64,000 bases of DNA from Candidatus Bathyarchaeia archaeon (GCA_049512935.1 JBEKWR010000006.1:1-64000); one strand, 5' to 3'. Shown: positions 36,095 through 58,694, counted from the stretch's first letter. The notes: generated by a model not told the origin, from the sequence alone. Numbers and translations are program-made.

Positions 36095-36169
36095 TGGAGC
36101 CAGGGGTCGGATTTGCACCGACATAAACAGCTCTGCAGGCCGTCGCTTTCTTTACTCAGCCACCCCGGC
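36095..36169 (-). tRNA. tRNA-Cys(GCA), copy A
   Basis: Cloverleaf: acceptor GCCGGGG/CCCTGGC, anticodon arm ACGGC-CTGCAGA-GCTGT, T-arm GTCGG-TGCAAAT-CCGAC, U73 and encoded CCA. Confidence 0.9.
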
Positions 36170-39654: not shown

Positions 39655-39729
39655 TGGAGCCAGGGGTCAGATTTGCACCGGCGTAAACGGCTCTGCAGGC
39701 CGTCGCTTCCTTTACTCAGCGACCCCGGC
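39655..39729 (-). tRNA. tRNA-Cys(GCA), copy B (T-stem mismatch)
   Basis: Same cloverleaf as copy A; T-stem GCCGG/CTGAC has a C-A mismatch. Confidence 0.8.
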
Positions 39730-44100: not shown

Positions 44101-44433
44101 TTAGTCTGTCGTTTTTTTTCCCGCTCTCTTGTAGAAGTTCTTCATGTCTTCCTCTAAATCTTCTCTATCGTATTGAGAGACCGTTTTCTTCTGCTTGAAA
44201 TAGTCCATCATCTCTCTAACAGACACGCCAGAGTCCATTGCAGCCCGCTCCAAAGTTATTGATCCATCAGCATAACGTTTCGCCGCGTACTCTTTCTTCC
44301 AGTCCATCACAGCCTTGTAGAGGAGCTTTCTAAGTACAGTTGAGCGGTCTGTTTGCTCCACGCCCTCTATCTTCTTAATGTCCGATACTAAGGTTTCAGG
44401 CAGTCTTGCAGCAACCATCTCTTCCTTCTTCAT
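44101..44433 (-). CDS. UPF0175-like antitoxin (RHH + HTH)
   Basis: ARLPE...DRSTVLRKLL; Y..G.ITLERAA..SGVS. Confidence 0.8.
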   Translation of the reverse strand: MKKEEMVAARLPETLVSDIKKIEGVEQTDRSTVLRKLLYKAVMDWKKEYAAKRYADGSITLERAAMDSGVSVREMMDYFKQKKTVSQYDREDLEEDMKNFYKRAGKKTTD

Positions 44434-44948
44434 TTTCTCACCTTCCTAGCCATGTTAATAATCTCAGTTGTAACATCCGTAGATATCCACATCACCTTTG
44501 CCAGTTTAGCAAAGTCTTCAACCAACTCATCGTAATTAATCAGTTTACAAACGAACGCTTCGTACAACACCATAACGGTGCCTCTATACTCCAAATCCCA
44601 ACTCTTCGCAATGGCTCGGGCTTCTTTATCATCGAGTATTATGAGTGCTTTTTCATCTTTTGCAAGAGTTAAAGCTTCAGCCTCGCCTAAACCAATCCTC
44701 ATCTCACCAATTAGCCTCTGCACTGTTTCATCTTGGCTCTCTGTTGGTTCGGTTACTGTGATCCAGCCTTCCTCAATGGCTTTTTCAATTTCTAAAGCAT
44801 CACTGGCGCCAAGCTCCTTTCCTTTGTCCACACTTTCAACCTTCACTGAGTGCGAGATTATGACTGTACCGTAAAGATCCCGTAGCAGTTTTAGCCTTCC
44901 GATCTTAGCTAAACAGATTAACGGTGACGTATTCGATGTTACTTTCAT
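44430..44948 (-). CDS. PIN-domain protein (DUF3368-like)
   Basis: SNTSPLI.LAKIG.L.LL, GEAEAL.LA, LDDKEAR, GT. Confidence 0.88.
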   Translation of the reverse strand: MKVTSNTSPLICLAKIGRLKLLRDLYGTVIISHSVKVESVDKGKELGASDALEIEKAIEEGWITVTEPTESQDETVQRLIGEMRIGLGEAEALTLAKDEKALIILDDKEARAIAKSWDLEYRGTVMVLYEAFVCKLINYDELVEDFAKLAKVMWISTDVTTEIINMARKVRK

Positions 44949-45027: not shown

Positions 45028-45053
45028 GAGCGGTGGATGGGAATTGAACCCAT
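45028..45053 (-). other. tRNA 3'-end remnant (att-like, Cys-type U73)
   Basis: Minus strand: ATGGG-TTCAATT-CCCAT perfect T-arm, then CCACCGC-T. Confidence 0.65.
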
Positions 45054-45220: not shown

Positions 45221-46159
45221 ATGCCGTTTAAAACCGTAAAGAAGGATGCGGCAGATGCCTTAACGATAGAATGGGGTTTGCAAGTTAAAAATTACAAGTT
45301 AACCCTTGACAAGAAACGCTGCGTCAGCTGCCAAATATGCAGTTTAGCCTGCCCGAAAGAGGCGATAACAGTGCAGAAGCAGCCTAAAGTTGCGGGGGAA
45401 AAAGCCAAAAGAGCCAAAGTCGACGTTGACTTGGCGAAGTGCAATTTCTGCGGAATCTGCGACGTCACATGCCCCTACGGCGCAATCAGGGTTACTTTGA
45501 ACGACAAGCACGAGCTTAACCTTCTGGCGAAGGACAGCTTTCCACAGCTTGTCAGGGACATAAAAGTTGACACGCGCCACTGCACCAAAGAATGCGTCGA
45601 ATGCGAAACAGCCTGTCCCTTAGGGTTGATAACGGTGTCTAAAGTCGGTTTTGACGGCAAACCAGTGGAAAACGTTGATGCCCTGTCGCCGAGCGCTAAA
45701 GACCGCGTTCAGGTTAGCCTCGCCATCAAAAGCGAGTACTGCCCAACTTGCAGGGTGTGCGAGTTCAAATGCAGCCCAGGCACCATAAAAGTCAAGAAAG
45801 CCTACGACGGCGTAATCGCCATCACACAGGAAAAATGCCCAGAAGGCTGCACAGACTGCCTTGACGTTTGCCCAATCCCAGGCGCGCTTGTTCTCGAAGA
45901 AGACAAGAAAGTTCATGTTAACGATTTGTTCTGCACTTACTGCGGCGCATGCAAAAACGTTTGCCCCGTTCCCGAAGCCCTCATGGTTAAACGCACGGCA
46001 ATACACCACACACCCATCCATTCAGGCGCGTGGAACAAAGCCTTAGAAAGATTAACCTCGCCAGCTGACGCGGCTAAAGAGTTCCGAAGCGTGGCTGGTG
46101 AGAGCAGGCGCAAGGCAGTAGGTAAAAGATTCCCAGCCTTTGAGGAGACGGAAAAATGA
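45221..46159 (+). CDS. Polyferredoxin (MvhB/FwdF-like, about six 4Fe-4S motifs)
   Basis: Repeated CxxCxxCxxxCP motifs; directly upstream of hdrA. Confidence 0.9.
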
Positions 46160-46205
46160 GCACATCACAAACTTCCAAAAGATTCAACTTAGAGGAGATA
46201 ATGAA

Positions 46206-48713
46206 ATGAGCAAACCAGAAGCCCCAAAACAACCCGAAACCCAAAAACCAGAAGAACTGCGGATCGGCGTTTTCATCTGCCACTGCGGCATGAACATCGC
46301 AGGAACCGTGGACGTACCATCAGTCGCCGAGTACGCAAGAACCATACCCGACGTAGTCTACGTTAAAGAAAACCGCTACACCTGCGCTGACCCGGGACAA
46401 GAAGAAATCAGAAAAGCAATAAAAGAACAAAAATTGAACCGTGTCGTCGTAGCCGCTTGTAGCCCAAGGATGCATGAGCCAACATTTCGGAAAACCGTAA
46501 GTGAAGCAGGGTTAAATCCCTATGTGTTTGAAATGGCGAACATACGCGAGTTCGCTTCTTGGTGCCATCCCAATGCTCCAAAAGAAGCCACAGCAAAAGC
46601 AAAAGATATCGTAAGGATGGCTGTCGCCAAGGCGAGGCTGCTTAAGCCTCTTGAAACCATGGAGGTTCCTGTAACCAAAAACGCCTTGGTTATCGGCGGC
46701 GGCATTGCCGGCATCAACTCCGCTCTGGATTTGGCGAATATGGGGTTCCAAGTATACCTTGTCGAGAAGAACACGAGCATAGGAGGACACATGGCACAGC
46801 TCGACAAGACTTTTCCGACTTTGGATTGCAGCATATGAATTGAAGGACCTAGGATGGTGGAGGTAAATCGCCATCCTAAGGTCCAAGTAATAACCAATGC
46901 GGACATCCTCAGTGTGGAGGGGTTTGTAGGCAATTTCAAAGTTAAGGTCCGCAAGAACCCAAAGTACGTTGATGCCAAAAAATGTACTGGCTGCGGGGAA
47001 TGCAAAGACGCCTGCCCAATAGAATATCCCAATGAGTGGGATATGAACTTAGGCGTAAGAAAAGCCATCTCCATTCCGTTTGACCAAGCAGTGCCTCTGA
47101 TCTACTCGATAAACAGGGATTACTGCATAGAGTGCTTCAAATGCGTGGATGCCTGTGGTGCGCGTGAAGCCATCAACTTTGACCAAAAGCCCGAAGAAGT
47201 TGAATTGGACGTTGGAGCAATCATTGTAACAACGGGTTGTGACATTTATCTACCATATGATGACGCCACGTACGGCTATGGAAGATACGATAACGTAGTT
47301 ACAGCTTTGGAGTTTGAGAGACTCATCACAGCGGGCGGTCCAACAAGTGGACACGTAGTCCGCTCATCCGATGGAAAGACACCGAAAAGCGTTGCCATCA
47401 TTCAATGCGTCGGTTCAAGGGACGTAAACAAGTACGAATACTGTTCAGGTTTCTGCTGCATGTATGGGCTCAAAGAAGCCATCCTTCTGAAAGAACATTA
47501 CCATGATGACGTGGAAGTCTACATTTTCTACATGGATATGCGCACTCCCGCCAAAGGTTATGAAGAATTCTATCGACGAGCCCGTGAAAAGGGAATTACC
47601 TTCGTCATGGGAAAGCCGTCCCGAATAATGGAAGACCCAAAGACCAAAAATTTGATTATCCGAGCAGAGGACACGAAGCTGGGGCAGCCCATCGAAGTCG
47701 AAGCGGAGATGGTTGTGTTAAGCACAGCCGCCATACCGAGTAAGGGAGCCGAAGAATTGGCCAGCATCCTCCACATAACGCGAGGGTCAGACGGGTTCTT
47801 CATGGAAAGTCACCCGAAACTCAAACCAATGGACACGCCTATGGACGGAGTATTCCTAGCAGGTGCTTGCCAAGGACCAAAGGACATACCCTACAGCGTA
47901 GCCCAAGGAAGCGGCGCGGCTTCAAGAGCTGCCACCATTCTTTCGCAGCCGAAATGGAAGATAGAACCGATTGTCTCCATCGTTGACGTCGCCAAATGCA
48001 GAAACCCGAAAGCAAAGTGCGGTGTATGCGTGAAAAGCTGCCCCTTCGGAGCCATAACCGCGGTTGAGGGGCAACCAGCCCAGATCAACGCAGCTCAGTG
48101 CCATGGCTGCGGAACATGCGTTGCTGAATGCCCACAAGACGCCATAACCCAGATGCACTTTACGGATGAACAAATAACCTCACAAATCAGAGCCGCGCTG
48201 GAAAGGGACCCTGAAGACATTATACTGACGTTTATGTGTAACTGGTGAGGTTACGCCGGCGCGGACCGAGCGGGGACGAGCCGGCTTGAATACCCTCCGA
48301 CGACGAGGGCTATTCGGGTAATGTGCACAGGACGGGTAGACAGAGACTTCGTCATGGAAGCCTTTAGACTGGGAGCCGGAGGCGTATTGATTACCGCCTG
48401 CCATCTTCCCAACGACTGCCACTACATCTCTGGAAACGTCAGGATGAAAGCGCGCATGGATGCCTTAGCTGGCATGCTTCAAAAGCTTGGATTGAGCCCG
48501 CATAGATTCAGGGTTGAGTACGTTTCGTCAGCTGAAGGAGAGAAATTCGTCAGCATCATCAAGGAAATGACTAGTCAAATGCAAGCTTTAGGCAAAGACA
48601 AGATACTCGCGGAAAACGCAAAGCTTCGACCAACCTTAGAGAACATGCTGAAACGCAAAGCAGCCGCCCCAGCCCCTGCAGCTAAACCCGCCGATCAAGC
48701 ACCCGCAAAGTAG
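46206..48713 (+). CDS. hdrA: HdrA-MvhD fusion selenoprotein (835 aa; Sec at residues 211 and 681)
   Basis: Track ORFs 46140.., 46854.. and 48321.. are one frame broken only by TGA at 46836-38 ([18 protein letters not shown]) and 48246-48 (FMCNW-U-GYAGAD). HdrA motifs [30 protein letters not shown]; MvhD motifs MCTGRV, CHY. ATG 46206 has a GGAG RBS. Confidence 0.92.
46845..46884 (+). promoter_or_regulatory. Candidate Sec-recoding hairpin 6 nt 3' of the first UGA
   Basis: GGACCT-AGGATGGTG-loop(GAGGTAAAT)-CGCCATCCT-A-AGGTCC: 15 bp, one G-U, one bulged A. Confidence 0.7.
48255..48285 (+). promoter_or_regulatory. Candidate Sec-recoding hairpin 6 nt 3' of the second UGA
   Basis: GCCGGC/GCCGGC 6-bp GC stem, G-A mismatch, CG/CG, internal loop, CC-GAGC-GG. 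Confidence 0.5.
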
Positions 48714-49114
48714 GCAAAGAATTGGCTCCTGAGCCATTGCGGTTGGGTGGAAGGTTCTTGTGGCAGTATGGGCTGTTCGATACGGATATCTTTAGCCTTG
48801 GCGGTAAGCTCAACACCTAGAGCCTTGACTTTCTGGGTCTTGTCATCTATAATAGCTCACTTTCAACATGTATAATCAACTTATCTTTTTGTGAATTGGC
48901 TAACTGTTAAGAGTCAACTAATGTCAGGAAGTGCCTGCAGATCCTTTCCTCGATTATCTAAAGCACAAGTTTTAAAAACAAATTAAACAATACCAGAATT
49001 TGTCCTCTATTTAATTGCTGAAGGACTGGGAAGATAATCCGATCCAGATGGAAATGCCTCACAATTCTCTGTTTAATACTTATCTTAGTCGCAAGCTTAG
49101 GTTTACCCGCTAAA

Positions 49115-50215
49115 GTGAAAGCACAATCAAATGGATTAACCCAACAGATTCCGCCGATGGACTTACACCCCGTAACGACTCAGCCTCAGCCTGATGGCGG
49201 CTTCATTAAAGATTGTGGTGTTTCTCAAGACGATGTCTGCAGCTCAAGCTGGATGGTATGGAGGGATTACACGCAGATGGGCAACCCGCTAACTGAGAAA
49301 CTGGAGGGTGGCTTTGGAGAAACCGTCAACGGAACTGAGTTTACTCTGGGCTTCGGTCTAACCTCATTTATTCCTCCACCCCAAGCCCCAAATATTCCGG
49401 TGGGAACGATAAGCCAGACAACAGACAACCCATGCGGAATCTGGATAAGCTGCCAGTACGGAGCATTCCCAATCTGGCTCTACAATGCCACAGACGTGAC
49501 AACAAATTCAGGTCAGGTCACAACAGTCAATGGGTTGCCGAGTGTCACACTTAATGAGACATTCAGCAACATCCAGCTCGACACAGGCGGGCACGGTGAC
49601 TCCACAGTGAATCTTGTTGTAAGCCAACAAATAACTGGTAACGCCACCACCATGATAGCTCAAGTCAATGTCTACGCCGACCTGAGCAACATGCACTTTT
49701 ACCTGCCTGACGGCACAGAGATACCGCAGGGCACCGACTACTCACTTAACCTCCTGTGGATAACTGGATTATCCAATGGAACCGAGTCGGCACAGCTCGG
49801 ATACTTTACTGCTTATCCATATACAATCATCGGGAACTCATTATACTTCATTGTGAACGGCGAAGTAGGCAACATTGCAGGCATAACTTTAAGCGACAAA
49901 TACGTGGAAAGCCAAGGTGCAAATCAAATGTCAAGCCGCCAAGCACAAGTCCAGTTCATAAGCACTAACGCAACTGTGGGTGCACATCGTGCACCAGAGT
50001 GCCTCTGTCTCCAAACGTTCCCAAACCTGACCTACGGAGTTACTACTAGCGTGCAGAGCGACCCCACCATCTACATGAACCATGCATTAATGTCGACTCT
50101 TCCCCTAATCACTCTCATTGTTGTCGTGGCTGTTGTAATTGCTGCATGCGTCGTTCTTTTCCGATATCGAAAAAGATTCAGGAAGGGAGCTAAAAAAATA
50201 AATGCCGAAACTTAA
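49115..50215 (+). CDS. Hypothetical secreted/surface protein with C-terminal TM anchor
   Basis: Thr/Asn-rich ectodomain, C-terminal TM then RYRKRFRK; open frame extends upstream through a signal-peptide-like stretch to about 49034. Confidence 0.75.
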   Translation: MKAQSNGLTQQIPPMDLHPVTTQPQPDGGFIKDCGVSQDDVCSSSWMVWRDYTQMGNPLTEKLEGGFGETVNGTEFTLGFGLTSFIPPPQAPNIPVGTISQTTDNPCGIWISCQYGAFPIWLYNATDVTTNSGQVTTVNGLPSVTLNETFSNIQLDTGGHGDSTVNLVVSQQITGNATTMIAQVNVYADLSNMHFYLPDGTEIPQGTDYSLNLLWITGLSNGTESAQLGYFTAYPYTIIGNSLYFIVNGEVGNIAGITLSDKYVESQGANQMSSRQAQVQFISTNATVGAHRAPECLCLQTFPNLTYGVTTSVQSDPTIYMNHALMSTLPLITLIVVVAVVIAACVVLFRYRKRFRKGAKKINAET

Positions 50216-50302
50216 TGCTTAATGAAATCCCAAGCTTGTGGCTTGATAGTATTCTGGGACTTTTCTTAATCTAATCATTAAAATCACCCAACGCGCGTTT
50301 CT

Positions 50303-50475
50303 GAGCGGAATATGTCTATGTTGCCGAGTGAATACAGAAATCGCACTGCGAGAAAAATTATTCAGCAGCTGAAGGCATCAATCGGGGCGTCCCACGGCTA
50401 GGCGGTCATAGCATCGGACTTCAAATCCGGTGAGCCCGCAAGGTCTCGGAATCCGATTCCCCTTGGACGCCGCCA
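50303..50475 (+). repeat. Direct repeat copy 1 (upstream region + tRNA-Sec); partner 51341..51514
   Basis: Both begin GAGCGGAATATGT...CGAGTGAATACAGAAATCGCACT and end at the tRNA CCA. Confidence 0.9.
50386..50475 (+). tRNA. selC: tRNA-Sec(UCA), copy 1 (D- and T-stem mismatches; variant or pseudogene)
   Basis: 90 nt, anticodon TCA at 50421-23; 4 differences from copy 2. Confidence 0.8.
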
Positions 50476-50504
50476 CTATACCACTGCAAAATCTGGCAAG
50501 AAAT

Positions 50505-50942
50505 TCACTTGAAAGGATTTACGACGTTTAGAAAGTTATATTTCTTGAAGTCATCAACATTTTCTGTATAAATGCATTCCACTTTGTCATCTTTGGCTGT
50601 GACCGCCATGGCGCAGTCGAAAATCTTGCCTTTAGTCACTTTCATTTCCTTCGTTAACCTCAAAACGTCCATGACTGCATTCGATGCTGGATTGATCTTC
50701 TCGATTTCGCGGCATTCCCAAAAGTCGAGGCATACATTTACGGCTTCACTTAATTTCATTGGAGACTCCACTCTCTTGGGATTCGTGATTACCGCAAAAA
50801 ATTCATATATCACTTGTGCAGTCAAACATGCATCAAGTTTTCCAGTCATCGCATCCTCAATTACGGCGCTGGCGCGTTTCTGAAAAGGAGATGACTTGTT
50901 ATGGGCGTGAACAAGGATATTGGTGTCAAGTAATGTCTTCGT
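50505..50942 (-). CDS. VapC-like PIN toxin; full domain starts at an ACG codon (50942)
   Basis: Frame extends upstream of the track ORF to (M)KTLLDTNILVHA; ...EFFAVIT...IFDC.....IYTENVDDF. Confidence 0.8.
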   Translation of the reverse strand, partial: TKTLLDTNILVHAHNKSSPFQKRASAVIEDAMTGKLDACLTAQVIYEFFAVITNPKRVESPMKLSEAVNVCLDFWECREIEKINPASNAVMDVLRLTKEMKVTKGKIFDCAMAVTAKDDKVECIYTENVDDFKKYNFLNVVNPFK

Positions 50943-51168
50943 AGATTTCCTCTCGCGAAAGTTTCCCTTTTATTTTCCCTAAGTCAGGTGGATTCTTAAG
51001 TCTTTTAAGAATTCGGGCTGCTGCATCGCAGCTGCGTGCAATTTCCAATTTGGCTACCCCTTTCTCGACAACCTCGATGCGCAATACGTCGCCTTCAGCT
51101 AGTCCCAGCCGTTCTTGGACTTCGCGTGGGAGGTATACCTTATCTTTATAGAACGTGGTTTCAGTCAT
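50926..51168 (-). CDS. AbrB/VapB-like antitoxin
   Basis: KVYLPREVQERLGLAEGD; C-terminal LSREEIYED; overlaps the PIN gene. Confidence 0.85.
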   Translation of the reverse strand: MTETTFYKDKVYLPREVQERLGLAEGDVLRIEVVEKGVAKLEIARSCDAAARILKRLKNPPDLGKIKGKLSREEIYEDIT

Positions 51169-51424
51169 GCACTCATCATTTACCCAATAAGTTGGGCAAA
51201 ATATAAGCGTTTACCCAAAGACTCACCCAAACCCTTGTGAAAACGAGTAGCAAGAAGCTTGAAAGATTCGATTGAAAGATAAAGCCCGAAGGATAATTAA
51301 TGAACGCTGCAGAAGCTTAAAATGGGTCTACAGCGGTCCAGAGCGGAATATGTTTATTTTGGCGAGTGAATACAGAAATCGCACTTCGAGACAAATTGCT
51401 TCATAGCTGAAAGCACCAGTTGAG

Positions 51425-51514
51425 GGCGTCCCACGGCTAGGTGGTCCTAGCATCGGACTTCAAATCCGGTGAGCCCGCAAGGTCTCGGGGTCCGATTCCC
51501 CTTGGACGCCGCCA
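51425..51514 (+). tRNA. selC: tRNA-Sec(UCA), copy 2 (intact 9/4 archaeal-eukaryotic fold)
   Basis: 90 nt. Acceptor GGCGTCCCA/TTGGACGCC (9 bp, one C-U); D-stem GCTAGG-TGGT-CCTAGC; anticodon arm ATCGGA-CTTCAAA-TCCGGT; long variable arm with GCAA loop; T-arm GGGG-TCCGATT-CCCC; G73 and CCA. Confidence 0.95.
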
Positions 51515-51574
51515 TCGCTCACAGTTTCAAAACAGCTCAGAATGAGTTCTCAATAACCAGCATGATGGGCTCGG

Positions 51575-52006
51575 TTGTCACAAGACATAAAAACAATTGA
51601 GGATACCTTACTGGGTATGAAGAGCCGTTCGCTAAAGGGCGAATCCCCGTCTCAGCTGATAGATGCGAGAATCAAGGAGCTTGGCGACTGGCGAGGCGAG
51701 ATGCTCTTACACCTCCGTGCTCTCATCAAGCAAGCCGATCCCGGAATCGTTGAAGAATGGAAGTGGGGGATTCCTGTGTGGTCTCACAATGGATTGGTCT
51801 GCACAGGCGAGACGTACAAGAGCGTCGTGAAGATGACTTTCTCCAAGGGTGCCTCGTTGAAAGACCCCTCGCACCTCTTCAATTCGAGCCTCGAAGGTAA
51901 TACAAGGCGCGCCATTGACTTCCATGAGGGTGACGAGGTTAACGAGAAGGCTCTGATTGCTCTTGTTCGTGCAGCCGTGGCTGCGAATGCCTCGACCCGT
52001 GTCTAG
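51575..52006 (+). CDS. DUF1801 (YdhG-like) protein
   Basis: DWRGE.L..LR.LI..ADP.I.EEWKWG.PVW...F.KGA.L.DP..LFN.SLEG. Confidence 0.88.
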   Translation: MSQDIKTIEDTLLGMKSRSLKGESPSQLIDARIKELGDWRGEMLLHLRALIKQADPGIVEEWKWGIPVWSHNGLVCTGETYKSVVKMTFSKGASLKDPSHLFNSSLEGNTRRAIDFHEGDEVNEKALIALVRAAVAANASTRV

Positions 52007-52064
52007 TGTGCCAAACTTCGATAGCTCCCTCTCCTTGCTGAACGGAATGGTCCAGAGGAAGTGA

Positions 52065-53396
52065 TCACGTCACTGTTTTCAAAACGGTGTCTAACCTCTC
52101 TGCTGCTGTGGTGATTTCGTTTTTTTGTATTCCTATGCTGGCGTCGAAGTTGATGTAGGATGAGACGTACTGTGGGCAGCACACTCCGAAATCGTTTTTT
52201 TCCAGCGCTCTTGCGCCGTTGACCCTTGCCGCGTACAAGGCTTTGCCTATTTTCTTGGCGTCTCTTCCATCTAGCGTCATAGCCACGGATATTGGATTGT
52301 AAACATTCAGTATTCGCTGTCCGTGCCTCTCCGCCACCGCCTTGAGGGATGATTCAAGGAACCGCCTGTTTTCTTCCTGCTGGGTTCTCAGCTTCTCGTA
52401 CCCGTCTAATCCTATCGACAGTACGGCTGCTAGGAACTGCGCTATGGGAGCGGCTGTTGCCCTTCCCGCGTAGATTTCAGACACGGCGTCTAGGAATTCT
52501 TCGTTGGGCGCGGCGACTATTGCTCCTCCGACTGGGGTTAGGAAATTCTTGTCTGTGCTCTGGATTATGGCGTCCACGCGTCCTGCGTCGATTGCGCCTC
52601 TTACGAGTTTCATGATTTCGCGGCTCTGCACTCCGAAGGCGTTGTTTATGATATGCGGCACTTTCTTCTCCTGTGCGATCTTTGCGATTTCTTTGATTTT
52701 ATCTGGTTCTCTGGGTGAAAAGAAAGTGGTTGTTGACAGAATCGCGGCGGTATTTTCGTTAACTGCTTTTTCTATCTCTTCTGGGGGAACGTTCACTGCG
52801 TCTCCGCAGACTTCTCCTGCCACTATTCTTTCTTGAAGACCTGCAAGATGAATCGCCTTCAGTGGAGTTTTAAGGTCAATCTGTGGGTAAACAACCTCTT
52901 TTCCCCCAGTTTGGTTTCTTGCGGCGCACAAGGCAAGAGCAAGCGTCATTCCTGTTGCCACAGGAAAAACCACCGCCTTCTTGATGTTTGGAACCCCGAA
53001 CCTTTTCATGGCGTCAGTTGCCAATTTGTTAGCGAAATAATACATGAGAGACCCACCTGCCGCCTTAGGCTGGGCTTCGGTCAGGTCACCTGACCTTCCT
53101 ACCCCATGATGAAATCCAAATGCCAGCTTTGAAACCACTGGAGAAGCAACCCTGCCCTCGCGTTCGCCTAAGAAAACTGCTTTGCTGTCCTTGTCCGAAT
53201 CCATTGCAGACAGCAGATTCAGCAGCGTTTCGATTTGGCTGTCTTTCCAGCCTTCTTTTGGTATTCTTCTTTGCTCGAAAAGTAGTTTTATCGACTGGGA
53301 CTCTGTGCCCAGCACTGTCAAGCCCCTTTCAAGTATGCTCTTTGGGATTGTGTCCTTCAACTTATCAAACGGCAACATAAAACATACCTTTAGCAC
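52065..53396 (-). CDS. spcS: O-phosphoseryl-tRNA(Sec) selenium transferase (SepSecS)
   Basis: GEREGRV, HGVGRSGDL..AQPKAAG, PVATGM, HIINNAFG, IQSTDKNFLTPVGG (PLP Lys), YAGRA. Confidence 0.95.
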   Translation of the reverse strand: MLKVCFMLPFDKLKDTIPKSILERGLTVLGTESQSIKLLFEQRRIPKEGWKDSQIETLLNLLSAMDSDKDSKAVFLGEREGRVASPVVSKLAFGFHHGVGRSGDLTEAQPKAAGGSLMYYFANKLATDAMKRFGVPNIKKAVVFPVATGMTLALALCAARNQTGGKEVVYPQIDLKTPLKAIHLAGLQERIVAGEVCGDAVNVPPEEIEKAVNENTAAILSTTTFFSPREPDKIKEIAKIAQEKKVPHIINNAFGVQSREIMKLVRGAIDAGRVDAIIQSTDKNFLTPVGGAIVAAPNEEFLDAVSEIYAGRATAAPIAQFLAAVLSIGLDGYEKLRTQQEENRRFLESSLKAVAERHGQRILNVYNPISVAMTLDGRDAKKIGKALYAARVNGARALEKNDFGVCCPQYVSSYINFDASIGIQKNEITTAAERLDTVLKTVT

Positions 53397-53528
53397 TGTC
53401 GGGCTCCCGATTTGTCTTTCCCTGTATATAAATTGTTAGTTTTGGCATCGTGGAGTCTGACGCGACTTGACTACATTTGCTGGCATTTAGGGGATGCAAC
53501 CACTTGATAAGCCTTAAATAGCGTTCTC

Positions 53529-53771
53529 TTGCACAATAAGTATGCAGTGATGGCAATGGGAAGAATAATAATCATAGATGACGATTCTCCCACAACCAGA
53601 GGAAAATTGATAACTTGCCCGATATGCAATGGTACAGGAAAATGCAAACCTTGTAAAGGTACAGGTACTGTTTGGGATAGAAGAGGTCCTTTTATAACAA
53701 ATAATTGCGAGGGCTGCGGTGGAACTGGTAACTGCCCAAGATGTCACGGTGACCGATACATTAGAGTCTAA
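53529..53771 (+). CDS. Small DnaJ-type CxxCxGxG zinc-finger protein
   Basis: CPICNGTG, CKPCKGTG, CEGCGGTG, CPRCHG. Confidence 0.75.
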   Translation: MHNKYAVMAMGRIIIIDDDSPTTRGKLITCPICNGTGKCKPCKGTGTVWDRRGPFITNNCEGCGGTGNCPRCHGDRYIRV

Positions 53772-53775
53772 CAGG

Positions 53776-53976
53776 AGTGTTGCATTGGCAAAACCTAAAG
53801 TCATCACTCTCGATCAAATGAAAAACGAATTGTCTAAAACTTATTGTGATGTCCATACGTGCAGTCGAATGGCAGAACTTATTTTTAAAACTGAGGATAA
53901 TGAGTTGTGGCTTTGTTTCTGCAAGAATCATGATCCAAGAAACTGGAAACCAGTCTATCCCACATCTAAGAAATAA
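53776..53976 (+). CDS. Small hypothetical Cys/His protein (start approximate)
   Basis: CDVHTC...FCKNH; follows the zinc-finger gene after AGGAG; track ORF 53719..53976. Confidence 0.45.
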   Translation, partial: SVALAKPKVITLDQMKNELSKTYCDVHTCSRMAELIFKTEDNELWLCFCKNHDPRNWKPVYPTSKK

Positions 53977-54127
53977 CTTGTAAATCTCAAAGCTAAACTT
54001 TGATTATCTAAATATTGTTACTTGTTCGTTAATTCAAACAGGCACACCTCCATTAAACGCCTTTGGCGAGCCCGATGCTCGACACAATTATAAACCCAAG
54101 ACGGCATAGACAACTGGGGAAAACAGG

Positions 54128-56323
54128 GTGTCGCAGAGTTATCCTTACCTGCTTATAATGTGCGGATTGCCTAGTTCAGGAAAGACCACCATCAGCAAAA
54201 ACGTCGCCTCCCTGCTTGAGGACAAACACGAGATATCGACCATGGTCATCAGCTCGGACGATTTTCGGGACATGCTCTCGTACAGCTCCAAAGGATTCAA
54301 GCCTGAGCGGGAAGCGTCGGTGAAGGCTCTTTATGAGAAGGCGATTGCAACTGGTTTGGAAGCTGGTTTTCTCGTCATCAGCGATGACTTAAACTACTAC
54401 AAATCGATGAGGAGCGAGCTTAGGCAGATTGCTAAACGGTCAGGCTCCGACTACGACATTGTCTTTGTTGATACACCCGTTGAGGTAGCCGTCAAATGGA
54501 ACCAAGAACGAGGGTCGCCGATACCGCAGTCCCTCATTGAGGAAATCAATCAGAAACTTGACCCGCCCAAAGGCGACTACAAATGGGACACTCCCCTCGC
54601 CGTTGTCGACCCAAGCAAGCAAAGCTTAGAGGGAATCGCCAGTGCCATCGTTACTGCGGTTCTGAAGAGGCTGGAAAACCCGATTAGGTCCAAGCCCAAA
54701 AAAGTTGTGGAAGACGAGAAATCACTGAGGGCAAGAGGCATTGAGCGGGAAACCCGAAAAGCCATGATGGAGGTCATGACGCGGTACAAGAACCCGGACT
54801 TGGGCATTTCTCTTTCCGCCATCAGAAAAGAAGTGGTGCACAAGGCGCTGGCGGACGGCTTGAAGCCTGTAGATGCGGTCGAATTGTTCCTCAGGGAAGC
54901 CAATGCGGTCGCAAAAAGTTACGCCGTGACTGAAGGCAAGGGCCTCATTCCCGTTCATGTGGGTCTTTTCGGGCATGTTGACCACGGCAAGACAATGATT
55001 GCCCGGCAGCTAACTGAGAAACCTTCGACGGCTGCATTGGACAAGGCACCGGACTCCGCCCGCCGTGGAATGACGCTGGACATGGGCTTCTCCGCTTTCA
55101 CCTTAGGTCCGTACCTGGCTACTCTCGTCGACTTGCCGGGGCACTTCAGCTTGGTCAGGCATGCGGTGGCGGGCGCCAACATAATTGACGCGGCGGTGCT
55201 GGTTGTGTCCGCCGACCTCGGATTGCAGGTTCAGAGCGTGGAGCATTTCGCAATAATCAAAGACGTGGGAATAAAGAATCTTGTAGTTGCCCTCAACAAG
55301 GTTGATTTGGCGTCCAAAGAGAGAATTGATGAAGTCAAGACAAAAGTCAAGCTTCTCCTAAAGGGAACTCCATACGAGAACGCAAAGATTGTGGAGGTCT
55401 CAGCCTTAACTGGCAAGGGAATTGATGAACTCAAACGCGCCTTGCAAGATTCCATCAGTCCACCCATTCGCCAGTGGAATGGCCCGTTCAAGATGCCTAT
55501 CGACCACGCATTCACCATAGCCGGAGTAGGAACTGTCTTAACTGGCACGATTCACCGTGGGAAAGTTAAGGTGAAAGACACCGTTGAAATCAAGCCCATC
55601 GACAAAAAAGGTCAAGTGCGTTCGCTGCGGTCATTCGGCGAGGACAAAGAGGAAGCTATCGCTGGAGACAGGGTAGGCGTCGCCGTCAAAGACCTAAAAC
55701 CTGATGACGCTCACAGGGGTTACGTAGCCGTTTCTCCTGGCTCCATCAGTTCTACCCGCCGAGTGATAATCGAGTTGGAAGTGGACAAGTACTATCTGCG
55801 TCCGTTGACGCCGTACAGCGATGTAGATGTGTTTGTTGGGTCTTATGAAGTGCTGGGAAACGTTGTGCCCGGCGCCGTGGAAGACGGCAAGTTCGTTGTG
55901 AAGCCGTCGGTGAAGGCTCCTGAAAAATGCCTAGTTTACATAGAACTCAGACAACAAGTCGTGGCGGAAAGAGGAGACCACATGCTCTTGATGAACCCTG
56001 GACTCCAAGCCCGCGAATTCCGAATAATCGGCGGAGGAAGAATCACTGAGACAGACAGCAAACTGGAATTCTTCTCAAAAAAGACCAAACAGGGAACTGC
56101 AGGACAAAAAAGAGAAGCCGACGAGTACTCAGTGACGGGTCTCTTTGGCACCTCGGAAGCTGCCTCCAAATTCGTGGGAAAACAAGTTGTTACAGCAACG
56201 GGAGTTACAGGCGAAATCAGGGCTTCGCTGTCATTGGGCGAAGTTTCAGTCAAGTTCAAAGAACCCGTGCACGAAGGCGAAAAAGTATTTCTCTACGTCT
56301 ACAAGAAGTTAAAAATCAAATAG
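54128..56323 (+). CDS. selB: Fusion of L-seryl-tRNA(Sec) kinase (PSTK) and Sec-specific elongation factor SelB
   Basis: N-terminal ~270 aa: CGLPSSGKTT, SSDDFR, DDLNYYKSMR, WN.ERG, YKWDTP. C-terminal: GHVDHGKT, RGMTLDMGF, DLPGH, NKVD, PIDHAF, VRSL, FRIIG and a short archaeal-type domain IV. Confidence 0.92.
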   Translation: MSQSYPYLLIMCGLPSSGKTTISKNVASLLEDKHEISTMVISSDDFRDMLSYSSKGFKPEREASVKALYEKAIATGLEAGFLVISDDLNYYKSMRSELRQIAKRSGSDYDIVFVDTPVEVAVKWNQERGSPIPQSLIEEINQKLDPPKGDYKWDTPLAVVDPSKQSLEGIASAIVTAVLKRLENPIRSKPKKVVEDEKSLRARGIERETRKAMMEVMTRYKNPDLGISLSAIRKEVVHKALADGLKPVDAVELFLREANAVAKSYAVTEGKGLIPVHVGLFGHVDHGKTMIARQLTEKPSTAALDKAPDSARRGMTLDMGFSAFTLGPYLATLVDLPGHFSLVRHAVAGANIIDAAVLVVSADLGLQVQSVEHFAIIKDVGIKNLVVALNKVDLASKERIDEVKTKVKLLLKGTPYENAKIVEVSALTGKGIDELKRALQDSISPPIRQWNGPFKMPIDHAFTIAGVGTVLTGTIHRGKVKVKDTVEIKPIDKKGQVRSLRSFGEDKEEAIAGDRVGVAVKDLKPDDAHRGYVAVSPGSISSTRRVIIELEVDKYYLRPLTPYSDVDVFVGSYEVLGNVVPGAVEDGKFVVKPSVKAPEKCLVYIELRQQVVAERGDHMLLMNPGLQAREFRIIGGGRITETDSKLEFFSKKTKQGTAGQKREADEYSVTGLFGTSEAASKFVGKQVVTATGVTGEIRASLSLGEVSVKFKEPVHEGEKVFLYVYKKLKIK

Positions 56324-56549: not shown

Positions 56550-58694
56550 ATGAGGGAAGGAGACATGAACAAAATAACCAAACCAACCACTGTTATCTTA
56601 ACAGTCTCAATCATAATAGTATTATTGGTGTCCCTTGGAACACTAAACATCTCTCGAGCATTTCAAGCATCTGGTTTAAACGCGAACCTTACGCTTTACG
56701 CTTCTGCAGGCGACCAAAACTCCGGAAGTGACACCGCCCAGGTATATGTCACAGGCGGCACTGGGCCACACTTGACTTTCAACTGGTATGTTAACAGTGA
56801 ATATGTTCAAACGAACTATGGCGATTATGCTTCGGTCGGCGATTACGCGTACGGTTATTTTGATTTCGCGTTTTCCTTCTCGGATCTTAACCTCGGCTCA
56901 AACACCATTTCCTGTGAAGTCACGGACAGCGCTTCCAATGAGGTCACGGCGACTGCAGGTTTCTATTTATACCCTCCACTCTCAGTGACCGTTTCACCTA
57001 ACCCTGAAACTGTAGATTCGGGTCAATCTGCCACGTTTACCGCCGATGTATCAGGCGGTTCAGGGTCTTATTCGTACCAGTGGACTTCTCAAAGTGCCGC
57101 GCCAGTTGGTGGTACGACATCTTCAACGCTTACTTGCACCGCCCCAACTGTTGTGCAAACCACTCAATACGCTGTTTATGTAAAGGTGACCGACGCCCTT
57201 CCCGCCTGCGACGGACTCAGCCTCTGTGATTCTTCTCTCACGCCAAACCTCACAGTTAATCCTCTACCAACCGCCACTGTTTCTCCTGCCAGCGCCAATT
57301 TGGCTGTTGGATCAACTCAGCAATTCAGTGTTCTTTCAGCGAGCGGCGGCACAGGGTCGCTGAGTTATGAATGGTACGTCAACAACCATGACCATGGCAC
57401 CGGTTACGATACTGGTGATTCAGGCCCAATTTACTATTACACTGCCGCACCCGACGACGCTACCTTCACACCAAGCGTTTACGTCGAGGTTACTGACAGC
57501 CTCGGTGGAATTGGCGATTCCAACTATGCAAGCGTAAACGTGAACTCCGCTTCTTCTGTCAGTGTTACTGTTTCTCCAGATCCTTGCACTATGTATGTCG
57601 GAGGCACCCAGACTTTCACGGCTTCAGCCACAGGCGGCACGGGATCCTATACTTACGACTGGTATCTCAACGGCGCTGATACTGGACAAACTGGTTCAAC
57701 TTTCGATTATACTGCTCAAGCAGGAGACGTTAACACTCCACCCAGCATTTACGTAGTCGCATGGGACACCAATCTCAATGGTGGGACATCTAACACTCCC
57801 ACCATAACCGTAAATCCTTTCACCGCAATTGTTTCCCCAAGCGCTTGGACCATGGACGTTGGGCAAGTGCAAACATTCACGGCTTCTGTCTACGGCGGTA
57901 CCCCACCGTTCGATATCGAATGGTACGTCAGCAACAGTTTTTATGGTTCCGACGTCAATGTTCAATCAGGAGGAACGTCTTTTGACTACATTGCTCAATC
58001 CCAGGACACCAGCTATCCACCCAGTATTTATGCCATCGTTACTGACAGCAGTACCCCACAGTTACAGGCTACTTCTAACGTGGCGACAATCACAGTGAGC
58101 TTTGGTCCTGTTAACCAGGCGAGCACAGGAGCGAGCGGCACCGTGCAAGGCGGCTCTGTAACGATAGATGAGTCATCAACAACAGGTGTCTCCGCAACCA
58201 TCTCAACTCCCACAGGAACTCCTCTACCGGACGGCACACAGATTGATGTTAACTCAGCGTCTTACGGAAGCACCCCGCCAGCGGAGGTAACTACACCGCC
58301 GCCCATATCTATAACTGGCGGAGGAACGGCGATCTATTATGATGTTTCGGTTTCACAAGGCGGCGGCGCTCCTTTGGGGTCAAACGTTAATGTTCAAGTA
58401 AGCTTTACCGACCCAAGCATCACCAGCTCAAGCACCATAGCGTATTGGGATGCCTCTACTAGCAGTTGGATTCAAGTGACTCCCACAGTCTTCACAGCTC
58501 CCGACACAATATCCGGCAGCATCCCTGCATCCGCTTTAACAGGAACACCCATCGTAGTAGGCTCTCCACAACCTGTTTTCGTCGCACCCGAATACTCCAT
58601 CGGCGCCCTCCTCGCCGTAATCGCATGCTTCGCAGCCTTCATCGCAATTCGCAAACCACACGCCCCCGCCTTGCTAAACCGCAGCAAATACTAA
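56550..58694 (+). CDS. Cell-surface protein with tandem Ig/PKD-like repeats and a PEF-CTERM-like anchor
   Basis: Signal peptide; repeated V.VSP...G..QTFTA...GG.G.Y.Y.WY.N units; C-terminal VAPEY + TM + RK. Confidence 0.8.
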   Translation: MREGDMNKITKPTTVILTVSIIIVLLVSLGTLNISRAFQASGLNANLTLYASAGDQNSGSDTAQVYVTGGTGPHLTFNWYVNSEYVQTNYGDYASVGDYAYGYFDFAFSFSDLNLGSNTISCEVTDSASNEVTATAGFYLYPPLSVTVSPNPETVDSGQSATFTADVSGGSGSYSYQWTSQSAAPVGGTTSSTLTCTAPTVVQTTQYAVYVKVTDALPACDGLSLCDSSLTPNLTVNPLPTATVSPASANLAVGSTQQFSVLSASGGTGSLSYEWYVNNHDHGTGYDTGDSGPIYYYTAAPDDATFTPSVYVEVTDSLGGIGDSNYASVNVNSASSVSVTVSPDPCTMYVGGTQTFTASATGGTGSYTYDWYLNGADTGQTGSTFDYTAQAGDVNTPPSIYVVAWDTNLNGGTSNTPTITVNPFTAIVSPSAWTMDVGQVQTFTASVYGGTPPFDIEWYVSNSFYGSDVNVQSGGTSFDYIAQSQDTSYPPSIYAIVTDSSTPQLQATSNVATITVSFGPVNQASTGASGTVQGGSVTIDESSTTGVSATISTPTGTPLPDGTQIDVNSASYGSTPPAEVTTPPPISITGGGTAIYYDVSVSQGGGAPLGSNVNVQVSFTDPSITSSSTIAYWDASTSSWIQVTPTVFTAPDTISGSIPASALTGTPIVVGSPQPVFVAPEYSIGALLAVIACFAAFIAIRKPHAPALLNRSKY

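Follow-up and report, generated by a model that had tools for sequence, protein, structure and literature searches.

The stretch of DNA analyzed here comes from Candidatus Bathyarchaeia archaeon (GCA_049512935.1, JBEKWR010000006.1:1-64000; 64 000 nt, referred to below as the window), and the question it raises is how an archaeon with a selenocysteine (Sec) system marks the UGA codons that are to be read as Sec. An 11-kb block of the window holds an intact tRNA-Sec gene and a degenerate copy of it, the genes for SepSecS and for a fusion of PSTK with aSelB, and an HdrA–MvhD gene with two in-frame TGA codons. We consider it highly probable that this block is a Sec-decoding cluster of the published PSTK–aSelB fusion type, lying beside what is apparently its only client; this is the best overall explanation of the data. 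With less assurance, we propose that the recoding signal is a hairpin in the coding sequence shortly after each UGA.

The window is contig C6 of genome G000 (2.30 Mb in 49 contigs, 93% complete, 1.8% contamination). Coordinates refer to the window unless another contig or locus is named, and genomes, contigs and loci of our collection are given by G, C and L numbers. Full-length relatives of the fusion protein, with 70–95% identity, were found in 18 loci from species-representative genomes (the related loci). The evidence is computational only, and statements on function are predictions.

The Sec machinery

Three genes of the block encode parts of the Sec machinery:

51425..51514 (+): functional tRNA-Sec gene with a UCA anticodon, 9/4 fold, 6-bp D stem, G73 and encoded CCA (Rfam, ARAGORN)
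52065..53396 (-): SepSecS (PF05889, 389.5 bits, E 1.8e-116; TIGR03531, 483.5 bits against a cut-off of 224.9)
54128..56323 (+): PSTK–aSelB fusion, one open reading frame (ORF) of 731 amino acids (PSTK at about residues 1–270, aSelB domains I–IV at about residues 276–731)

The body of the tRNA-Sec gene (51425-51510, plus strand) reaches 64.5 bits with the Rfam model RF01852 (gathering score 47); ARAGORN likewise identifies it as tRNA-SeC with anticodon tca. In the Rfam alignment the acceptor stem has 9 bp, one of them a C.U mismatch, the D stem 6 bp and the T stem 4 bp; together with the four bases that follow (G and CCA) the length is 86 + 4 = 90 nt. The gene is 100% identical to the tRNA found in L014, L015 and L017. 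GCCA stands 3' of the tRNA in all four copies aligned (51511-51514 and 50472-50475 of the window, L015 and L017), and a 2022 review says that archaeal tRNA-Sec genes do not encode CCA (PMC9499178).

A preliminary description of this DNA had named SepSecS and a fusion of PSTK and SelB, and both are borne out. SepSecS matches the M. maripaludis (Methanococcus maripaludis) SepSecS structure over its full length (PDB 2z67, 315.8 bits). In the fusion protein, Pfam domains of KTI12/PSTK (residues 8–220) are followed by EF-Tu GTPase, domain 2 and aSelB domain III (residues 277–641); the SelB part scores 280.5 bits with TIGR00475 selB (cut-off 242.3) and the kinase part 126 bits with Pfam KTI12 (cut-off 22). 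The best PDB match of the SelB half is the archaeal SelB 4ac9 of M. maripaludis (255.6 bits, query residues 276–722 with residues 20–475 of the 482 of the chain), and the C-terminus matches aSelB domains III and IV; bacterial SelB (4zu9, 5lzb) matches only domains I–III (residues 279–591, ∼143 bits). No second PSTK or SelB was found in the genome with tblastn.

SelD had been noted as absent from the window, which is correct; the search of the genome found selD on another contig (G000:C11:6313-7191; 340.7 bits against 291 for NF010705 and 234.5 against 125 for TIGR00476). The protein has Cys at the Sec/Cys position, and its gene has no internal stop. In the selD locus (L001, G000:C11:4813-8691) a DsrE/TusD-like gene lies upstream, and a small helix-turn-helix gene and a periplasmic-binding-protein-like gene lie downstream; the latter two are presumably similar to ModE and ModA, a likeness that we take from reading the sequences alone. 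SepRS and SepCysS are absent from G000, where SepRS is matched with at best 50 bits (against 381) and SepCysS with at best 39 bits (against 365). SepRS is also under its cut-off in all five further Sec-positive genomes of the family (88–98% complete), and thus in none of six genomes, G000 included, is it found.

All parts of the Sec machinery appear to be present and intact. The route is the archaeal/eukaryotic one that had been proposed, with 9/4 tRNA-Sec, SepSecS, aSelB, SelD and a target selenoprotein all present. Going by the known roles of these protein families, SerRS would charge the 9/4 tRNA-Sec, the PSTK half of the fusion would phosphorylate Ser-tRNA(Sec), and SepSecS would make Sec-tRNA(Sec) with selenophosphate from the unlinked Cys-type SelD. 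The aSelB half would then carry Sec-tRNA(Sec) to both UGA codons of HdrA–MvhD, where Sec would replace a conserved Cys.

HdrA–MvhD and its two Sec codons

The putative client and its two codons are located as follows:

46206..48713 (+): HdrA–MvhD fusion selenoprotein, read through with exactly two TGA codons
46836..46838 (+): Sec codon 1, TGA in the window and in all 14 orthologous loci that cover the site (15/15)
48246..48248 (+): Sec codon 2, located in the MvhD part (context FMCNW-U-GYAG), kept as TGA by the window and all 15 orthologous loci (16/16)

The two in-frame TGA codons reported for this gene are thus conserved in all orthologues. Cys is found opposite both of them: site 1 is TGC or TGT in the neighboring paralogues of L019, L020 and L022, and site 2 is likewise a Cys codon (TGC or TGT) in the neighboring paralogues of three loci. 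In the alignment with the HdrA of PDB entry 5odc_A (841 bits), U212 stands at the second Cys of DCSIC, which is conserved in solved HdrA structures. Residues 671–800 are VhuD-like, MvhD chains in the PDB match the protein with 125–139 bits, and the FlpD/MvhD Pfam model spans the second TGA. A genome-wide reassignment of TGA was considered and rejected, since TGA terminates 347 of the 1270 long ORFs of the genome. Both TGAs are firmly predicted to be Sec codons.

A search of the rest of the genome for other genes with a TGA aligned to Cys, as suggested in the preliminary description, gave no supported candidate: three crude scans of G000 for read-through ORFs or hairpins supported no other selenoprotein, and the top five read-through candidates each show separate Pfam domains on the two sides of the TGA. 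Among the classical archaeal families, G000 has four NiFe hydrogenase large subunits without an internal stop; no molybdopterin oxidoreductase was found in it, and its other FlpD/MvhD copy has no internal stop. HdrA–MvhD seems to be the only client detected in G000. This would be a minimal case, with four dedicated genes and a tRNA seemingly kept for two residues of one flavoprotein.

Three points weigh against this account of the cluster. The best kinase match of the fusion is TIGR03574 selen_PSTK, which is covered at 227 of 249 model positions with 145.1 bits, below the cut-off of 290.5. The score of HdrA–MvhD with the NCBIfam HdrA2 model (1075.8 bits) is likewise just below the cut-off (1100). 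And the view of HdrA–MvhD as the only client comes from crude scans, of which only one recovered both known sites, in a genome that is 93% complete.

Hairpins after the UGA codons

Each of the two UGA codons is followed by a predicted hairpin, identified from its folding energy and from comparison with shuffled sequences (positions are counted from the U of the UGA):

46845..46884 (+): hairpin 1, stem starting at +10 from the U of UGA1, 13–16 bp, with one bulge and a variable loop
48255..48285 (+): hairpin 2, stem starting at +10 from the U of UGA2

Hairpin 1 has a folding energy of -25.8 kcal/mol (z -5.44), a stability reached by none of 200 shuffles and by none of 1500 random in-frame coding windows. 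Its 13 pairs are kept in 12 distinct sequences, which vary only in the loop, the bulge, the spacer and the flank. Hairpin 2 (-26.5 kcal/mol) is equaled by one of 1500 random in-frame coding windows, and its 10 pairs are invariant in eight distinct sequences. The Cys-containing paralogues have ordinary stabilities at the same places (-6.7 to -13.3 kcal/mol overall, -6.7 to -7.0 at site 1), and the Cys paralogue compared with shuffles has z values of +1.65 and -0.93 at the two sites. Synonymous diversity among 16 orthologues points the same way: the lowest 12-codon window of the gene starts exactly at Sec codon 2 (0.023 versus a mean of 0.294), and windows starting 4–7 codons after Sec codon 1 are among the 25 lowest of the gene (0.10–0.12).

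From these data we infer that the recoding signal is probably a hairpin within the coding sequence, with its stem 10–11 nt from the U of each UGA. Such a hairpin would sit at the mRNA entrance of the ribosome when the UGA is in the A site.

Selenoprotein candidates in distant Bathyarchaeia

Distant lineages of Bathyarchaeia have PSTK–SelB fusions that are 41–44% identical to that of the window, with SepSecS directly downstream. Their candidate selenoprotein genes lie beside the machinery and encode Sec-SelD (14 loci), two families of secreted CARDB-like proteins, a UGAC protein and a UGSC-like protein; the family names UGSC-like and UGAC are provisional. In the first CARDB-like family (seven sequences, some of them paralogues) an 11-bp helix always starts at +11, four of its pairs change on both sides, and 94.8% of cells are paired; none of 500 shuffles reaches either the covariation score or the paired fraction, and slid controls are 23–48% paired. 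Compared with random windows, the hairpins of the second CARDB-like family and of the UGAC protein rank in the top 0.07–0.3%. Counting all eight Sec sites or families, the pattern is clear in six, ambiguous in one and absent in one.

It is conceivable, at somewhat less than even chances in our estimate, that fusion-bearing Bathyarchaeia in general decode Sec by means of hairpins 6–7 nt after each UGA within the coding sequence, without a Sec insertion sequence (SECIS) in the 3' untranslated region (UTR).

The CARDB-like proteins have a signal peptide, a CARDB-like N-terminal domain and an in-frame TGA (C-U-G, G-U-G-G-C), and their genes adjoin the Sec machinery (L133:14560-16020, plus strand; L135:1755-2798, minus strand, with a tandem paralogue; L172, L175, L179, L197 and L208). 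They form a candidate family of extracellular selenoproteins. Sec-SelD (G-U-x-C-K-L-P) is encoded within the cluster in L133 (at 13494, plus strand), L135, L168, L174, L177, L179 and others, 14 loci in all. L134 (4185-4859, minus strand) and L180/L184 are the loci of the UGSC-like candidate (H-C-D-U-G-S-C) and of a larger relative (G-D-U-G-A-C), which has a 14-bp hairpin at +9/+10.

Position of the recoding signal

Several observations count against hairpins in the coding sequence as the signal. The z of hairpin 2 is a modest -2.33, and five of 200 shuffles match its stability. Synonymous constraint places the windows after the first Sec codon only at about the 15th–25th rank among the overlapping windows of the gene, and an unrelated Lys/Glu-rich stretch has a lower synonymous diversity. 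There is no covariation in the two HdrA hairpins, whose stems are invariant, so that their support consists of synonymous constraint and stability only. More distant Sec-containing HdrA orthologues were sought for this purpose, and the HdrA homologues of G110, G220, G037 and G103 have no stops or unrelated ones; the helices stayed invariant because these four genomes provided no such orthologues. Among the other genes, Sec-SelD has a hairpin at +10 or +21 with two competing folds, its stability ranging from the top 0.07% to an ordinary 20% of random windows; for each of the two helices tried as alternatives, covariation did not exceed that of shuffles. The UGSC-like candidate has no hairpin after the UGA (24% of random windows). 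Finally, domain IV in the aSelB part of the fusion is of the short archaeal form, and the winged-helix domains with which bacterial SelB binds SECIS are lacking; because of this the hairpin has no known reader.

The strongest alternative is that a classical distal SECIS, in the 3'UTR or elsewhere, directs the insertion, and that the hairpins near the UGA are helpers or have another role. The literature gives support for it: reviews up to 2026 place archaeal SECIS in the 3'UTR and bacterial SECIS in the coding region, and by their account the archaeal elements described so far are all in UTRs (PMC13188914, PMC11227280); the stem-loops beside the UGA in eukaryotes, known as Sec redefinition elements (SREs), are reported to assist a 3'UTR SECIS (PMC4561486). 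The lack of a SECIS-binding domain in aSelB fits a distal element as well. The factor that reads archaeal SECIS is described as still unidentified (PMC9499178). In the window's own family, the first ∼35 nt after the stop codon are conserved in 12 of 16 orthologue 3'UTRs, but this stretch is missing in the other four, which keep both TGAs and both hairpins, and it lacks a consensus fold (-0.84 kcal/mol for the alignment of the HdrA–MvhD 3'UTR; z -0.25 for that of the window). Of 46 distinct 3' regions from selenoprotein genes of Bathyarchaeia, not one has the GAA_A pattern of the euryarchaeal model, and no Rfam SECIS family matches at E ≤ 1 between 44 and 59 kb of the window. These tests of the 3'UTR are crude and leave room for a divergent distal element, which is a further point against the hairpins as sole signal. 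On balance we regard a distal SECIS as rather unlikely, and prefer the hairpins in the coding sequence.

Comparison with known systems

The preliminary description did not know Sec to be established in Bathyarchaeia. It is established there: Mukai et al. (2022; PMC8762117, Front Genet 12:794509) described a PSTK–aSelB fusion in 'diverse Bathyarchaeota', with a typical Sec gene cluster, and a system with this fusion in one Archaeoglobus; the bathyarchaeal system is repeated in a 2022 review (PMC9499178). Sec in Bathyarchaeia is not new, and the cluster is one more member of the system described in 2022. The preliminary description had itself named a host lineage with known Sec use as a ground for refutation, and on this ground its claim of novelty falls. 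In passages of later selenoproteome papers (PMC11227280, PMC13188914) there is no mention of Bathyarchaeia, and the word SECIS does not occur in the main text of PMC8762117. The contig shown in its Fig. 9B is our locus L184, whose fusion is 42% identical to that of the window.

As in the published system, PSTK and aSelB form one ORF, SepSecS and tRNA-Sec are adjacent, and the machinery is clustered with Sec-using genes in Bathyarchaeota (PMC8762117). The window differs from that account in three respects: SepRS and SepCysS are absent in its lineage, SepSecS is divergently oriented instead of downstream in an operon, and the mismatch in the acceptor stem is C8.U, whereas U6:U67 was reported. 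In addition, SelD is of the Cys type and unlinked here, whereas the distant fusion-bearing lineages have Sec-SelD in the cluster. The purpose proposed for the fusion, from its occurrence together with a SepRS–SepCysS system without SepCysE, is to shield Sep-tRNA(Sec) from SepCysS (PMC8762117). With SepRS and SepCysS absent, shielding from SepCysS cannot explain the fusion here, and the published rationale therefore cannot be general.

The system shares its enzyme families with that of Methanococcales and Methanopyrus, from which its best structural relatives come (aSelB 4ac9, SepSecS 2z67), and also the two Sec sites, as HdrA and VhuD are listed among the shared archaeal selenoproteins (Mukai 2017, PMC5424206). 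Unlike there, PSTK is fused to aSelB and HdrA to MvhD, and the D stem has 6 bp instead of 7. A 3'UTR SECIS with a GAA_A bulge is used in those lineages; no such element was found here. The hairpins lie 6–7 nt after the UGA, while distances of 88–679 nt between UGA and SECIS are given for M. maripaludis (PMC9622424).

In their layout the hairpins resemble bacterial SECIS: they are located in the ORF directly after the UGA, one for each UGA, as simple stem-loops without a kink-turn. The factor, however, is an archaeal aSelB with a short domain IV, whereas bacterial SelB binds through its C-terminal domains, and synthesis goes through PSTK and SepSecS, not SelA; no shared sequence motif is established. 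The eukaryotic SRE (SRE/HRE), which promotes recoding, is similar in that a stem-loop stands next to the UGA in the ORF of a host with machinery of the PSTK/SepSecS type. The SRE of SEPN1 starts 6 nt after the UGA. The SRE differs in acting together with a 3'UTR SECIS, none of which was found here, and the host here is an archaeon. Mariotti et al. (2015; PMC4561486) proposed that the eukaryotic stem-loop near the UGA descends from bacterial SECIS.

As far as our literature searches reach, the HdrA–MvhD hairpins, the hairpins in other genes, and a single client in a genome without SepRS and SepCysS seem to be unpublished. If the hairpins act as proposed, the bacterial arrangement would here, for the first time in an archaeon, be at work with enzymes of the archaeal/eukaryotic type, and the system would be a living intermediate for the proposed descent of the eukaryotic SRE from bacterial SECIS. 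Their layout would be relevant, too, to the evolutionary shift of SECIS from the ORF to the UTR. With a hairpin for each Sec codon and the fusion as the sole Sec-specific translation factor, the system would be a compact and testable model for the reading of SECIS. A more speculative idea, which we think improbable, is that the fused PSTK domain, which normally grips the 13-bp acceptor/T helix of tRNA-Sec, also reads the 11–16-bp mRNA helices; this would account for the retention of the fusion in lineages that lack SepCysS.

Host and origin of the cluster

The host is a Bathyarchaeia archaeon, as the preliminary description had suggested from its appearance: 15 of the 18 closest loci are labeled Candidatus Bathyarchaeota/Bathyarchaeia (the other three carry different bin labels), and the flanking housekeeping genes are 64–94% identical to their counterparts in these loci.

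Five elements (polyferredoxin, HdrA–MvhD, tRNA-Sec, SepSecS and the fusion) occur together in 13 of the 18 related loci, and these 13 have a single tRNA-Sec gene 8–14 nt from the 3' end of SepSecS. The flanks conserved in the closest loci encode a CBS-domain protein, a ribosomal L22e-like protein, a glycosyltransferase, a nitroreductase and a class I aminoacyl-tRNA synthetase. Besides the genes listed above, the block and its edges contain the following features (TA, toxin–antitoxin):

44101..44948 (-): TA-like pair flanking the block, UPF0175 antitoxin-like gene (44101-44433; PF03683, E 2.4e-8) and PIN-like gene (44430-44948)
45030..45052 (-): remnant resembling the 3' half of a tRNA (T arm and 3' strand of the acceptor stem), 23 nt, at the upstream edge of the block
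45221..46159 (+): polyferredoxin, 312 amino acids, with several 4Fe-4S dicluster Pfam domains
49115..50215 (+): protein of 366 amino acids with a C-terminal hydrophobic anchor, a window-specific insertion
50386..50471 (+): tRNA-Sec copy 1 (46.7 bits in a permissive Rfam scan against the gathering score of 47; no ARAGORN call)
50505..51168 (-): TA-like pair between the tRNA-Sec copies, partner of 114 amino acids and of no family (50505-50849) and AbrB/MazE-like gene (50926-51168)
51575..52006 (+): DUF1801 protein (PF08818, E 2.5e-23), window-specific, between tRNA-Sec and SepSecS

The 11-kb block had been suggested as possibly a transferable Sec island; read in this way, machinery and target would have been recently acquired together by a lineage otherwise without Sec. 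Its distribution agrees with this, as only 12 of 401 sampled genomes of the class have a full-length SepSecS (at least 356 bits), with four of 40 genomes in the window's genus and four of 12 in a sister genus. The machinery adjoins its client, the block holds or borders on two TA-like pairs, a tRNA remnant and a duplicated tRNA, and the Sec-negative congener G324 keeps the upstream flank, with 31 kb of unrelated genes between the flank markers. The boundaries and the composition speak otherwise. At the ends of the block there is no integrase, no transposase and no direct repeat (no recombinase family was found among the genes examined between 42 and 64 kb), the GC content of the block (0.43–0.53) is like the 0.477 of the genome, and selD is unlinked. 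The cluster is syntenic together with both flanks in related species, and the identities to L014 are much the same inside it (SepSecS 92%, fusion 91%) as outside (CBS protein 87%, class I aminoacyl-tRNA synthetase of the Trp/Tyr type 94%). The TA pairs, the DUF1801 protein and the proteins of 366 and 714 amino acids, which look mobile, are window-specific insertions within an older cluster, and the tRNA duplication, too, is specific to the window apart from its recurrence in metagenome locus L139. No clean empty site was found in five Sec-negative congeners, four of which have the flank markers on different contigs. The island idea is weak and in our judgment improbable; the cluster reads as an old resident of a variable region, whose history would include losses and perhaps some transfer.

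That the whole is an artefact, from a chimeric assembly or from a split or decaying gene in which the TGAs really are stops, deserves almost no credence: translation with table 11 does split HdrA–MvhD into three ORFs, and frameshifted pieces occur in L030, L029 and L027, but both TGAs stand at the same codons in 15–16 orthologues from separate assemblies, opposite Cys in paralogues and structures, with the MvhD Pfam domain spanning the second TGA and a complete Sec machinery alongside, and both the gene order (in 13 of 18 related genome loci) and the tandem arrangement of tRNA and TA genes (in L139, with 93% identity) recur. In L030, L029 and L027 it is HdrA, SepSecS or the fusion that is found in several frame-shifted pieces; assembly indel errors seem a more likely cause than decay, because the TGA codons and hairpins are intact there.

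Other features of the block

The polyferredoxin gene is the first gene of the cluster and is conserved, lying upstream of HdrA in 14 of the 18 related loci. The best NCBIfam match of its product is FwdF-like (151 bits, under the cut-off), and it is likely to be the electron-transfer partner of HdrA–MvhD. The protein of 366 amino acids has no Pfam match, and no homologue in the 18 related loci. Directly downstream of the fusion, a window-specific gene without TGA (56550-58694, plus strand) encodes a secreted Ig/PKD-repeat protein of 714 amino acids with a C-terminal anchor.

Two 90-nt tRNAs with a UCA anticodon and 9/4 fold had been reported, of which only one is an intact 90-nt gene. Copy 1 differs from it at four bases, and a change of GG to AA breaks two of the four T-stem pairs, so that this copy is probably degenerate. 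The conserved upstream region of ∼95 nt and the encoded G-CCA end are common to the two copies. Metagenome locus L139 (the one with the 93% identical tandem arrangement) has the same degenerate upstream copy (46.8 bits). Copy 1 is probably a decayed duplicate that arose when a small TA cassette was inserted. In the TA module described for the block, the AbrB/MazE-like gene scores 24.5 bits with PF04014, just under the cut-off of 24.7, and its partner belongs to no family. Homologues of the AbrB-like gene adjoin tRNA-Sec in L014 and L018 as well. In the TA-like pair that flanks the block, the PIN-like gene matches PF20698 under the cut-off (E 9.2e-5); the pair is window-specific, with no homologue in the related loci.

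The tRNA remnant that had been placed at 45028 corresponds to the 23-nt stretch resembling a T arm and acceptor strand at 45030-45052, which neither Rfam nor ARAGORN calls as a tRNA. The stretch is unique in the window and has no match in 100 shuffles. An origin from the window's own tRNA-Cys genes was rejected, as it does not match them; from the 3' part of a tRNA-Cys(GCA) on contig C3 it differs by three mismatches. The window itself has a pair of tRNA-Cys(GCA) genes 3.5 kb apart (36095-36169 and 39655-39729, both on the minus strand), out of four in the genome. On contig C3 a tRNA-Cys has two partial copies of its own 3' end behind it (at about 44540, 45773 and 46811), which looks like the result of serial integrations at tRNA-Cys.

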